A DNA stretch of 32,000 nt from assembly GCA_964354495.1 (NCBI GenBank), contig CAYHAA010000011.1, forward strand, positions 76,811 through 108,810, in the 5' to 3' direction. The translations under genes and the position numbers were made by a program. Shown in pieces: positions 9,367-13,814 of the stretch; position 1 is the stretch's first letter; each line of letters begins with the position of its first letter. A model generated the notes under the pieces. It saw nothing but the letters and a program-made list of their open reading frames with translations. It was not told the DNA's origin and did not search any database. Origin of the DNA: an uncultured archaeon (GTDB lineage Archaea; Asgardarchaeota; Thorarchaeia; Thorarchaeales; Thorarchaeaceae).

Positions 9367-9377
9367 GTTCAATTGAA
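9367..9377. promoter_or_regulatory. Candidate operator GTTCAATTGAA immediately upstream of the agmatinase start
   Basis: Contains the 10-bp palindrome TTCAATTGAA and is identical to the core of the 11883..11900 palindrome. It lies between a TATA-like CTTATCTT (9395..9388, minus strand) and the ATG. Confidence 0.4.
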
Positions 9378-9480: not shown

Positions 9481-11130
9481 TTATACTTGGTACGATGCGC
9501 CACCGTGGGCGCCCCTGCCTCGAACCATCAAGGCAATGTTGAGAAAGGCTCCCAGTCCTACTACACCAACTGCAATACCTGTGAATGGCATTCCGTCATT
9601 GAACATCTGAGTCAAGAGACCCAATGGGTCTGCACTGACAGTGTAGCCATCGATGTGTGTTGACTTCATGTAAGTGGTTGCATTGTATGTATAGATCATT
9701 TCAGCAGGCATGAATGCATACCCACCTTCATACGCGAATGTCACTGTGTATGTGAAATTCAACCATCCTCCTGCAGGAATGCTTCCTGAGGTTGCGAGAG
9801 TATCTCCTGTGACATTGACAGAGTCGTAGGTTTCTCCAATCTCAATATCTACAACTGTGACATTGGTGATTGCCCCGGGCCCGTCATTATGTACTGCAAC
9901 GACAACATCGACAGATTCTCCAGGAGTTACTGTGGCAGGACTGAACTCACGTGTGACGGTGACAAGGGGTGGGAAATCTCCTTCAATGAAGTTGACAGTG
10001 TAGTCCGTTTCTGTGGAGGATGTTGCATTCCAAAACACCATACCTGATTCGTTGTCATAGTGTGTTCGATTCAAAGCTTCATACTCAGGACTGTAAGATG
10101 TGATATTCACGGTTTGGGGCATGGATAATACTACGAACGATTGACCGTCGTCCAGGCCACTCACATTGCCACTTGACTTTCCAAGAAGATCCTCAAAGAT
10201 ATTGAGTTCTGTGGAGGAAGTAGTCAGGACCTGGTCTCCGATGTATCCTGCAAAAACGACTGCAAGTGGACCATCAAGCTCCGGCATCTGGGAGAGTGCG
10301 AATGACGACGCTGAAGGTGTACTGTTCGTAAAGCCACCAATGAGGTCTGCCAACGCACCGAGGTCAGGTATGGCCACAAGTCCAGCTCCCGAGGCTCGAG
10401 CCTCAGAAAAGATCGTTTCATCAATAGAGCCCAGAAAACCTGAGTCGTCCATCACGCTAAACACGCTGCTGACAGCTTCTCCAAACGTATTGCTGACTTG
10501 AGAGATGAATACATCAATGCTCTCGAAGGGTAATGTGACAATCATTTCTGGCGGGAAGAAGCTCTCATCAATCCTCAGATTGAGTAGGTCTGAGAACACG
10601 AACCCGAAGGCAAGATTGAGATGAGCCTTTATGGCTGCCATATTCGTCTGAGCAGCTGCTGCCTCTGCATTCACAAAGATATTGACGAGAAGGCTGAAAT
10701 CAGTTCCGAGCATGGCAAGCAATGAATTCACATCGAGACCACCCTCTCCGAACTGAGTTGCAGAGAACTCTCCACCGCCACCGGTGATATTGAGAAGATC
10801 TGAACCTATGAAGTCGATTATGTAGTCCAGAAGCTCACCCTGCGTAGCAACTAGGGCCATCACCATACAGTCTGTGTACATAGGTTCGGTCAGGCCTAAC
10901 GCATCTGACGGAATACCCAGCTGTGCATAGATCACTGCAGGTTCGCCCTGTGGCCCGATAGCTGCGAAGACCAACTCGGCTCCGTTTTCAAGGAGACCAG
11001 TGAAGAAGTCCTCATCGAAATCCTGAGATAGTGCGACTCCACCTGAATTGGCTGCAGCCACATTTGGTGCGGCTAGCAAGAAGCCTATGGCAATTGCTAC
11101 AATTAGTGCGTGCTTATGATTAAGTGTCAT
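9481..11130 (-). CDS. Cell-surface/secreted protein with signal peptide, Ig-like domain and C-terminal membrane anchor
   Basis: Signal peptide MTLNHKHALIVAIAIGFLLAAPNVAAA, acidic and N-x-S/T-rich body, a V.PGE.V.V.V.V.N.G...I.NV.V.D Ig-like (DUF11/BatD-like) segment and a C-terminal hydrophobic helix. GGAGGC SD 8 nt upstream. Confidence 0.8.
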   Translation of the reverse strand: MTLNHKHALIVAIAIGFLLAAPNVAAANSGGVALSQDFDEDFFTGLLENGAELVFAAIGPQGEPAVIYAQLGIPSDALGLTEPMYTDCMVMALVATQGELLDYIIDFIGSDLLNITGGGGEFSATQFGEGGLDVNSLLAMLGTDFSLLVNIFVNAEAAAAQTNMAAIKAHLNLAFGFVFSDLLNLRIDESFFPPEMIVTLPFESIDVFISQVSNTFGEAVSSVFSVMDDSGFLGSIDETIFSEARASGAGLVAIPDLGALADLIGGFTNSTPSASSFALSQMPELDGPLAVVFAGYIGDQVLTTSSTELNIFEDLLGKSSGNVSGLDDGQSFVVLSMPQTVNITSYSPEYEALNRTHYDNESGMVFWNATSSTETDYTVNFIEGDFPPLVTVTREFSPATVTPGESVDVVVAVHNDGPGAITNVTVVDIEIGETYDSVNVTGDTLATSGSIPAGGWLNFTYTVTFAYEGGYAFMPAEMIYTYNATTYMKSTHIDGYTVSADPLGLLTQMFNDGMPFTGIAVGVVGLGAFLNIALMVRGRGAHGGASYQV

Positions 11131-11882: not shown

Positions 11883-11900
11883 TGTGTTCAATTGAACACA
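11883..11900. promoter_or_regulatory. Perfect 18-bp palindrome TGTGTTCAATTGAACACA, probable operator
   Basis: Exact inverted repeat in the divergent intergenic region, 28 nt upstream of the wHTH regulator start. Confidence 0.6.
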
Positions 11901-11928: not shown

Positions 11929-12282
11929 GTGGAGAACAACACCGAATCAGCTTCAGTGTATGAGTTAATCCAGATGATGTCGTCCCTGAACGACACGAGA
12001 AGGTCAATTCTCAACGCACTAGCCCATATCTACCCGAGAAGTGTGAGCGGTGTTCAACTCAGTCGTCTGATTGGGTACAGCGGCAAATCAAGAAGTCTAT
12101 ACAGGGGCGTTATCGCGCACCTCACGGAGCTCGAGATGATACAGATAGACCAGCTCACGCCAAAGCTCTATGCCATTCGCATCAACAATGAGCATCCACT
12201 TCTGTCTGTCCTCGTGAATCTGTGTAGGATACATGGCGAGCAATCCCGTAATCTCTACTTGAGAGCTCTGGGGGAAGAATGA
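11929..12282 (+). CDS. Winged helix-turn-helix DNA-binding protein (ArsR/MarR-like)
   Basis: TRRSILNALA...SGVQLSRLIG......VI.HL..L....MI.......Y.I has wHTH spacing. GTG start. Confidence 0.68.
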   Translation: MENNTESASVYELIQMMSSLNDTRRSILNALAHIYPRSVSGVQLSRLIGYSGKSRSLYRGVIAHLTELEMIQIDQLTPKLYAIRINNEHPLLSVLVNLCRIHGEQSRNLYLRALGEE

Positions 12283-12884
12283 ATATGGAAGACGATCTTC
12301 TGAAGCAAGCAAGGGCCTTGTACAAGGACCGCTTACGCATTGCTCTATCTGCCATGCTGATTGTCTTCACTACCACGTGCTACGTGTTTTACAATCTCGC
12401 TCTCAGCGGAACGGATGTTCCAAATGGTCTTCCAGGTGGGTCGACGCAGGGCTTTCAGGCTGCTGTTTCTTTCAATACAATTGGATTCACCGTTTCCATA
12501 CTTCTAATGGCTCTTGTCTTTCGATTCTGGTCCTGGGCATTTCTCCCTGGTCCTGCCGCCATATTCACACTTGGGTTGCTGGAGGGAATTCTCGGACCCA
12601 GAGTGGTCATTGAGCAAGTAATAGGCAAACGATTCAAGGTCACGCTTGAAAATGGGATGCAATTTGAGGTGAGTTGCAGAACCAGAAACAGAGGAACTGA
12701 TGAGTGGTTCAGCTACAGGTTGGTCACAAGCCCACTGCAAGGAAGCGGCCTGAGAGAAGTCGCGCTACGACACGGTTTTGCGTTGAAGGATGACAGGTTC
12801 GTCGCAACTGTCAGCAGTGACGAATTGCATCAACGTACTTTCCTCCTCACGAAGGCCATGATGGTTGCAAGATCGACCATTTGA
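12279..12884 (+). CDS. Hypothetical membrane protein (two N-terminal TM helices plus a soluble domain)
   Basis: Two hydrophobic segments in the N-terminal half. ATGA overlap with the wHTH gene indicates coupling. Confidence 0.72.
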   Translation: MNMEDDLLKQARALYKDRLRIALSAMLIVFTTTCYVFYNLALSGTDVPNGLPGGSTQGFQAAVSFNTIGFTVSILLMALVFRFWSWAFLPGPAAIFTLGLLEGILGPRVVIEQVIGKRFKVTLENGMQFEVSCRTRNRGTDEWFSYRLVTSPLQGSGLREVALRHGFALKDDRFVATVSSDELHQRTFLLTKAMMVARSTI

Positions 12885-12998
12885 AGTCATTCCCTCGCCC
12901 GATATCCGACATACTCAAGAAACCTATTTCTACGATTGCTGACATTCTACACTGATTCTAAGATGGTCATCCGTGTAAAGCGTACGATTGACATAGCA

Positions 12999-13355
12999 AT
13001 GGCAAACTACACCGAGATAATTGGCTTCAGTGTCTTCACCTACGAAGGTCGGGTGGCCTATGCAAGTGATAACATGGACATTAGTGGTGAGATTGGTGCG
13101 ATCATCCAATCTTGGAACGGCCAATCTCAGCAGTTCATGTTGAAGGGAATTTCCCTTATCGCAGCTTTGACGACGAATCAAGGTTTCGTGGCAATCAATC
13201 CCGATGGAGCTGTAAGTTTCATATGTGGTACAGGAAAGGGAGTCTGGTTTGTTTCTGTATTTGCACCAATGGACGTAGACAAGCAAGGGATTCTTCGAGA
13301 GTGTGTGCAAGCTGCAAAGAATCTTGAGACTTCAGTGTCAATCTTTGACATCTGA
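12999..13355 (+). CDS. Probable profilin-fold protein (divergent Asgard profilin-like)
   Basis: About 118 aa from ATG 12999: IIGFSVF..EG......NMDI..EI..II.SW....F.L.GI....T...FVAIN..G...FI....WF....P......IL.E...AA..L parallels the Asgard profilin pattern. Track ORF 12936..13355. Confidence 0.55.
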   Translation: MANYTEIIGFSVFTYEGRVAYASDNMDISGEIGAIIQSWNGQSQQFMLKGISLIAALTTNQGFVAINPDGAVSFICGTGKGVWFVSVFAPMDVDKQGILRECVQAAKNLETSVSIFDI

Positions 13356-13367
13356 TTCAGAAGCTTA

Positions 13368-13814
13368 TTATTTCGCATCCATCAAGGGCTTCTGTTCAGC
13401 GATTATCCGGGCTACAAAAGCAAGGATTGCGCCAACCCAACCAAAAGACTGCTGGAGCTGCATTGTCATATCCATCGATAGTGTTCCAGTCATAACACTC
13501 TGAACAAGTATCATCAGAAGACCGATGATACCCACTGCAATTGCCAAGTTGACGATTATTCTACCTATTCTTACCTCGGAGGTTGTTAGTATCACTCCAC
13601 CTATGATGACAACGATTCCTGATATGATGGTGATCGAAGCAAGCCCTGCCATGATATTCTCAAGTGTCAGAACCAGGGAAAACTCTAGAATCTCGCGAAG
13701 GGCTTCTGCAAGTTCATCGATAAGACCGATTACGCCACTGGCTCCGGATGCGAAGAGCAGGACTCCGCCGACAAGGCAGAGTATGAATGCGTTCCTATTG
13801 TGAATCTTCATCAA
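13368..13814 (-). CDS. Hypothetical four-helix membrane protein
   Basis: Four Gly/Ile/Leu-rich hydrophobic segments. TTTAAA box at 13846..13841 upstream. Confidence 0.78.
   Translation of the reverse strand: MMKIHNRNAFILCLVGGVLLFASGASGVIGLIDELAEALREILEFSLVLTLENIMAGLASITIISGIVVIIGGVILTTSEVRIGRIIVNLAIAVGIIGLLMILVQSVMTGTLSMDMTMQLQQSFGWVGAILAFVARIIAEQKPLMDAK

Follow-up and report, generated by a model that had tools for sequence, protein, structure and literature searches.

The window analysed here is a stretch of 32,000 nucleotides (G000:C11:76811-108810) from a 3.3-Mb assembly that is 97.7% complete. Positions 12963-13355 of its forward strand hold a gene for a diverged profilin paralogue of 130 amino acids plus stop codon, here designated PFL130. 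The preliminary description had placed an open reading frame of about 118 amino acids at 12999-13355 of the same strand; this frame is real, but the start was set 36 nt too far downstream, at the internal Met13, so that helix alpha1 was cut off. No stop interrupts the frame between 12936 and its end at 13355. In a protein alignment of the PFL130 family, the 12 residues ahead of Met13, MVIRVKRTIDIA, hardly vary; they form helix alpha1 in the structural model and align, in the family profile, with the N-terminal helix of Loki profilin-1. Changes among orthologues at codon positions 1, 2 and 3 number 10, 12 and 26 in codons 1-12, and 115, 77 and 255 in codons 13-130. In a word-indexed search, 201 homologues were found at 70-92% identity, nearly all of them 128-130 aa long. 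Sequence comparison further revealed a TATA-box-like element, CTATTTCTA, at 12924-12932 (+), about 35 nt before the ATG and preceded by a purine-rich stretch. Its sequence and distance are kept at 21 of 22 orthologous loci from 13 genera, the sole deviating locus having CTATTAATA in its place, and the consensus over these genera reads CTATTT(C/T)(T/A)A with the purine-rich stretch ahead. Apart from this element, no conservation was found among the loci from the 13 genera in the DNA just 5' of 12963. Thus, the conservation of the upstream residues, the third-position bias and the position of the TATA-like box together set the gene at 12963-13355. As the box is conserved in both sequence and distance, we infer that PFL130 has an archaeal-type promoter of its own, with a leader of only a few nucleotides.

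Upstream of PFL130 lie two genes on the same strand, and the position given for PFL130 in the preliminary description, downstream of a winged-helix and membrane-protein pair, is correct in this respect. The first of them (11929-12282, +) encodes a soluble protein of 117 aa and shares 4 nt, at its stop codon, with the beginning of the second. This second gene (12279-12884, +) encodes a membrane protein of 201 aa, in which three long helices precede a C-terminal alpha/beta domain of about 90 residues. The winged helix of the 117-aa protein, on the other hand, is a lead from a protein language model (protein atlas) only, according to which it is possibly of the MarR type; Pfam gave nothing significant for this protein (best E 0.14), and a sequence search of the PDB gave nothing. 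On the other side, PFL130 is followed by a convergent gene for a 148-aa polytopic membrane protein (13368-13814, -), a conserved downstream neighbour. The conserved order of the whole block is an agmatinase-type gene (-), a TRAP-beta-like surface protein of 549 aa (-), a 165-aa membrane protein (-), the 117-aa protein (+), the 201-aa protein (+), PFL130 (+) and the 148-aa protein (-), with a divergent arrangement between the 165-aa and the 117-aa protein. The 117-aa protein is a conserved neighbour that also occurs without PFL130. Similarly, the 201-aa protein is conserved across Thorarchaeia and their sister family, including genomes without PFL130. Its model (pLDDT 83) matched no PDB fold significantly (best Foldseek E 0.012) and did not point to any connection with profilin or actin; the weak top rows were type III secretion chaperone-like and Csm1-like proteins.

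Some further features of the block were noted in passing. The 549-aa protein (window 9481-11130, -) has an N-terminal signal-like helix and a C-terminal anchor, and its residues 386-485 match Pfam TRAP_beta (translocon-associated protein beta) above the cut-off with an E-value of 5e-6; as DUF11 and CARDB weakly overlap this region, the match may be to an Ig-like surface domain. The window holds exactly two copies of the decamer TTCAATTGAA, within 11883-11900 and at 9368-9377. One copy is the core of the palindrome TGTGTTCAATTGAACACA, which precedes the 117-aa gene by about 30 nt, and the other is located just upstream of the agmatinase-type gene on the opposite strand. Allowing one mismatch, four matches to the decamer were obtained, which is not above chance (21 of 100 shuffles).

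Judged by its homologues, PFL130 is evidently far more than a chance open reading frame. The named ones are nearly all from Thorarchaeota, all annotated as 'hypothetical protein' and without a Pfam domain (e.g. RDE15346.1 and TFG28156.1), and scans of the PFL130 protein with Pfam and NCBIfam likewise yielded nothing, with no Pfam match even at E 10. The profilin model PF00235 has no match in the whole genome above its curated gathering cut-off of 25 bits, PFL130 included. With Asgard proteins this model generally performs poorly: the canonical Thor profilin of the same genome likewise remains sub-threshold at 19.9 bits. Searched against the PDB as a single sequence, PFL130 gave one relevant match, to 7PBH (E 3e-3, residues 7-110); a family profile of 17 members improved this match to E 1.7e-6 and also weakly recovered Loki profilin-1 (5YED). 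Matches to designed 'Cake' propellers in the PDB search were rejected as an artefact of a shared 'AINPDG'-like word. An alignment of 61 PFL130 members against 19 canonical Asgard profilins, comprising the two Thor paralogues and proteins from eight other Asgard families, by hhalign extends over 124 columns with one gap of a single residue (probability 98.2%, E 4.9e-14), so that homology to the profilin superfamily is found at the level of family HMMs. Similarly, the clusters of the ESM Atlas nearest to PFL130 are those of Thor profilins, with scores of 0.94 and 0.92, and among characterised proteins, significant sequence matches were to profilins only. A search of 1.8 billion representatives returned just the clusters of PFL130 itself and spurious repeat proteins with an 'AINPDG'-like word. 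Longer, fused forms of PFL130 were sought and none was found. The protein has no hydrophobic segment and is, for this reason, taken to be soluble.

Structural modeling points to the same relationship. An AlphaFold2 model calculated from the family alignment (pLDDT 86, pTM 0.79) shows the topology alpha1(2-14)-beta(21-26)-beta(31-34)-short alpha(41-51)-five strands(57-102)-alphaC(107-124), with a central helix of 11 residues and seven strands in total, followed by a C-terminal tail, SVSIFDI, which is conserved but left disordered and at low confidence in the model. The pattern quoted in the preliminary description is recovered in the translation and reads, in the numbering of the 130-aa protein, G21-F-S-V-F..E28-G, N37-M-D-I, S50-W51, F58.L.G-I63 and F75-V-A.N79..G82, followed by the terminal helix. 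In a Foldseek search of the PDB with the model, profilins occupied the first 13 ranks with E-values of 1e-9 to 1e-8, among them Odin profilin (E 1.3e-9, TM 0.80/0.86) and Loki profilin-1 and -2 (TM 0.82-0.84); yeast profilin and 7PBH were also listed. An exhaustive structural comparison, which is independent of Foldseek, placed profilins in the first nine positions with Z-scores of 12-17.8: Odin profilin (5ZZA_P) at Z 17.8 with an rmsd of 1.9 over 119 of 119 residues, Loki profilin-1 at 16.8, mouse profilin IIa at 14.2 and 7PBH at 12.1. The best roadblock or MglB structures followed at Z 12.0-11.0, and longin, Ragulator and GAF-type folds at 8-10. The proposal of a profilin-like protein is therefore upheld by the sequence homology and by both structural searches; the AlphaFold and Foldseek comparison that had been suggested as its check returned profilins as the best matches rather than a non-profilin, and the roadblock, longin or GAF-like folds that had been named as alternatives fall behind (Z 12.0 or less as compared to 17.8). 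We regard the profilin fold and the profilin homology of PFL130 as established.

PFL130 is not the only profilin of its genome. A genome search with the PFL130 protein produced a weak second match on another contig, C16 (E 1e-3, 27% identity), which carries two tandem genes for canonical profilins. The first of these (G000:C16, L002:1441-1824) is the orthologue of thorProfilin and is about 80% identical to the 7PBH sequence in the alignable core, as estimated by eye; the second is its sister gene of 124 aa. Because this canonical tandem pair is located elsewhere in the same genome, PFL130 represents a third paralogue, and the earlier suggestion of an additional, diverged paralogue annotated as hypothetical proved correct. 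At least one canonical profilin was identified in 82 of 87 Thorarchaeia genomes, including all 24 of high quality, and nearly all of these possess both tandem copies. PFL130 is present as a single copy in 62 of the 87 genomes (17 of the 24 of high quality) and in 13 of 17 genera. The 313 other Asgard genomes gave no strong match. Across all 400 Asgard genomes scanned, matches with E-values below 1e-47 were confined to one family-level taxon; those from other Asgard lineages ranged from 1e-11 to 1e-4 and were, on inspection, ordinary profilins of the NWD/GIKY type.

In a maximum-likelihood tree of 54 sequences, PFL130 forms a single clade (support 100/100) whose stem measures about 3.5 substitutions per site, and the Thorarchaeia profilins A and B group together (98/94). 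As the stem has no firm attachment point, the duplication is either specific to Thorarchaeia or older. Across genera, the identity to the PFL130 of the window is 46-66%, and in the same genomes profilin A shows 60-76% and profilin B 40-48%. PFL130 appears to have evolved fast once and has been under ordinary purifying selection since; it might be envisioned that the copy changed very rapidly after the duplication and was then frozen. The gene is gone from between intact neighbours in two genomes (G022 and G014), where the genes for the 201-aa and the 148-aa proteins are about 75-120 nt apart. In another genome (G023) a different open reading frame takes its place, and in a further one (G079) only a faint remnant is found (E 1.5e-4). 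A genome of the sister family (G001) has the pair of 117-aa and 201-aa proteins but no PFL130. PFL130 is thus an accessory gene that has repeatedly been dropped from an older conserved neighbourhood, and it is dispensable in several lineages that retain actin and both canonical profilins. In a genome of the same genus (G043:C172:264-651), the orthologue is split into two overlapping parts and has several stops, and in another (G086:C6:11062-11445) it has one in-frame TGA; these copies are possibly pseudogenes or assembly errors.

Compared to canonical Asgard profilins, PFL130 differs at positions that are otherwise strictly kept. Four residues are invariant in the 19 canonical sequences, the N and W of NWD, the Y of GIKY and the second G of G.GH, and PFL130 retains only the N; the W is replaced by M or L, the Y by F or L (L in this genome) and the G by V or T, so that three of the four hallmark residues of the canonical proteins are replaced. 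The Lys of GIKY, which corresponds to Loki K71 and Odin K58 in our alignment, is Ser or variable in the PFL130 family. Loki K71 and Odin K58 have been equated with human K69/K90, which are predicted to bind phosphoinositides (PMC8410842). PFL130 lacks this Lys predicted to bind PIP2. Human profilin K69 also contacts actin.

Of the residues implicated in the function of characterised relatives, a part is maintained. In heimProfilin, mutation of G63, F95 or G104 weakens the inhibition of filament elongation (PMC8410842). The equivalent of F95 is kept as F75, which is at least 90% conserved in PFL130, the Gly equivalent to G104 is lost, and the position of G63 is Gly in this genome but not conserved across the family. 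The polyproline site of thorProfilin has been proposed by superposition to consist of V24, Y28, T29, W53, K139, L141 and I145. Five of these seven positions are similar in PFL130 (V5, Y33, K119, L121 and V125), Y33, K119, L121 and V125 being aligned with W53, K139, L141 and I145; at the places of Y28 and T29 it has I9 and D10. The retained equivalents F75, Y33, K119, L121 and V125 would fit an ordinary profilin activity. PFL130 also has an invariant set of its own, consisting of R7, N15-Y16, the INPDG turn (78-82), the hairpin loop CGTGKG (88-93), PMDVDK (102-107), much of the C-terminal helix and the tail SVSIFD(I/V). INPDG, CGTGKG, PMDVDK and the C-terminal helix presumably lie on the actin-facing side of the profilin fold, going by eukaryotic profilin-actin complexes and our alignment. 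These strongly conserved loops and the C-terminal helix suggest that PFL130 may have a conserved partner. Net charge and pI, when compared, did not separate PFL130 from canonical profilins. Given that three of four invariant residues are replaced and that the Lys of GIKY is not kept, it is uncertain whether PFL130 binds actin; since Asgard profilins are poorly conserved in general, the loss of the hallmarks is no proof that actin binding has been lost.

With regard to a possible partner, Thorarchaeia possess essentially one highly conserved actin (PF00022) per genome, with or without PFL130. A diverged actin paralogue as the partner of PFL130 was considered and rejected, as the rare second actin-like genes (G007, G012, G013, G017 and G027) do not track PFL130. 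Other observations on actins and profilins were made along the way. In this genome, the one actin gene is divided between two contig ends (G000:C12:94148-95206 and G000:C37:3-98). In six other Thorarchaeia genomes (G009:C24:27517-28650, G016:C90, G008:C13, G003:C3, G007:C1 and G027:C103), the actin-family match is 30 nt longer than elsewhere (1134 instead of 1104 nt) and is interrupted by one in-frame stop only, TGA or TAA, which suggests a short insertion, an intron-like element or a recoding site inside the gene. Many Asgard genomes outside Thorarchaeia have a profilin domain that opens a frame of 205-245 aa (L035:619-1250, L036, L041, L042, L037 and L033; Asgard families f22, f21 and f19, probably of Lokiarchaeia type). 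The profilin domain is followed there by a low-complexity linker rich in Pro, Gln and Ser and then by a well-conserved C-terminal segment of about 50 residues, IDPxLKxEIQxFLDWIKDxEGLAGYIxYYLQQNN... Other matches are located in frames of 413-445 aa. This could be a profilin to which a further domain has been added.

Among characterised proteins, thorProfilin (Thorarchaeota TFG12995.1) comes closest to PFL130; its structure has been solved by NMR (PDB 7PBH; bioRxiv 10.1101/2021.08.06.455371; PMC8410842). It binds polyproline weakly and slows the elongation of rabbit actin (PMC8410842), and it co-localises with actin in HeLa cells. PFL130 resembles thorProfilin in fold, length class and phylum, and both have the AAK.L motif of the C-terminal helix. 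However, the identity is only about 22-27%, PFL130 lacks the disordered N-terminal extension of 20 residues, and NWD and KY of thorProfilin are NMD and SF in PFL130 (SL in this genome). In addition, PFL130 is located at a separate locus behind what is probably its own promoter, and a quarter of the genomes lack it. In structural terms, the best matches are Odin profilin and Loki profilin-1 and -2 (5ZZA, 5YED/5YEE and 5ZZB), with TM values of 0.80-0.86 and an rmsd of 1.9-2.5 A over 119-133 aligned positions. Here the identity is as low as 13-15%, the Loki loop is missing from PFL130, and the NW, GIKY and G.GH elements that Odin and Loki profilins have in common with other Asgard profilins are mostly replaced. 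The Odin and Loki profilins are said to have been crystallised with actin by Akil and Robinson in 2018.

PFL130 is a true profilin homologue, a soluble, cytoplasmic third paralogue specific to Thorarchaeia and probably transcribed from its own promoter. We consider an explanation in which this homologue is also remodelled in its specificity fairly probable (roughly 0.6). The protein would then act as a profilin-type one-to-one binding protein with shifted specificity, and it would serve as an accessory regulator beside the two housekeeping profilins rather than as their replacement. A re-purposing for a different conserved partner has in our estimate not quite an even chance, and an altered mode of binding to the one Thor actin, which is very conserved, is conceivable at a chance that falls noticeably short of even; what is left goes to an entirely conventional isoform or to other outcomes. 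It might further be speculated that PFL130 is a profilin-fold adaptor which has lost canonical actin binding and in which the remodelled, strongly conserved face of sheet and loops formed by INPDG, CGTGKG and PMDVDK, together with the conserved C-terminal tail, binds a different conserved partner in Thorarchaeia; we put this forward tentatively, as plausible but somewhat short of probable. A more conventional explanation would be a third isoform that binds actin monomers by the usual face and modulates polymerisation in the manner of thorProfilin, with differences only in expression or affinity. The complete profilin fold, which is collinear with that of the actin-bound Odin and Loki profilins, the retention of F75, K119, L121 and Y33 at positions implicated in characterised relatives, and the one very conserved actin per genome, which could be the conserved partner, are in line with such an isoform. 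We nevertheless regard it as rather unlikely, given the replacement of three of the four canonical invariant residues, the loss of the Lys of GIKY and of the Gly equivalent to heimProfilin G104, the very long stem branch and the dispensability of PFL130 in several lineages with actin and both canonical profilins.

The remaining explanations concern the genes next to PFL130, its fold and its being functional at all. PFL130 might be the soluble subunit of a module with the 117-aa putative regulator and the 201-aa membrane protein, docked, for example, on the cytoplasmic alpha/beta domain formed by about residues 108-201 of the latter. The gene order is conserved at 12 of 12 loci drawn from other Thorarchaeia genomes that span nine further genera, and 61 of the 62 genomes with PFL130 also have the 201-aa protein, the sole exception ending at a contig edge. 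Such co-occurrence of adjacent genes is expected anyway in fragmented assemblies, however, and as the agmatinase-type gene belongs to the same conserved block, the synteny may be mere inheritance. Moreover, PFL130 has the conserved promoter element of its own, its distance from the 201-aa gene ranges between 67 and about 300 nt, with 2 kb in one genome (G027), PFL130 is missing between kept neighbours, and the 117-aa and 201-aa pair is unchanged both where PFL130 is deleted and in the sister family lacking it. For these reasons we do not read the block as an operon, and with no informative fold match for the soluble domain of the 201-aa protein, a common module is in our view improbable. Far less probable still is a protein of roadblock/LC7 (MglB-like), longin or GAF type that merely resembles a profilin. 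Asgard roadblock/LC7 proteins (PDB 7F8M and 9JUE; PMC10933270) do have the same alpha/beta core, against one face of which the N- and C-terminal helices pack, and roadblock and MglB structures, which share this core with profilin, reach Z-scores of 10-12. According to a structural comparison of Asgard proteins, it is a short central helix with extra strands that separates profilin from roadblock (PMC10933270). This is the topology of the PFL130 model, from which the long dimerising central helix and the five-stranded sheet of roadblock proteins are absent; in addition, profilins score about 5 Z units higher with the whole chain covered, and significant sequence matches are to profilins only. 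Finally, there is hardly any reason to assume a decaying duplicate without function. Losses in several lineages, the broken copy in G043 and the in-frame TGA in G086 would be in accordance with decay, but about 60 genomes from 13 genera carry the gene as one full-length, open copy, and an identity of 46-92% within the family, the third-position bias and the conserved promoter element all argue strongly against it.

Many homologues have been reported in surveys of Asgard profilins, together with gene duplication and loss in their history (PSI-BLAST, 256 sequences); structural clusters that are 'siblings' of profilin and absent from catalogues have also been described (bioRxiv 10.64898/2026.10.28.762692). 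The PFL130 family is described in none of the texts found, in a literature scope that excludes the BioEssays 2023 AlphaFold paper on Asgard profilin interactions and the 2018 Nature paper. The accessions of six PFL130 members occur in no paper searched, and the five that were checked against the supplements of PMC8410842 are not present there. Few eukaryotic signature proteins have biochemical support. Asgard profilins belong to these few and serve as an argument that actin cytoskeletons were regulated before eukaryotes arose. Most Thorarchaeia have three genes for proteins of the profilin fold and not two, the third being missed by Pfam and annotated as hypothetical everywhere; PFL130 thus bears on the counts of such proteins and on the reconstruction of how the profilin family expanded. 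If PFL130 still binds actin, three profilins would serve a single actin, which would provide a simple system for the specialisation of isoforms. If it no longer does so, a profilin fold would have been recruited to a new partner, and an adaptor of this kind would be the first example of profilin neofunctionalisation within the Asgard archaea.
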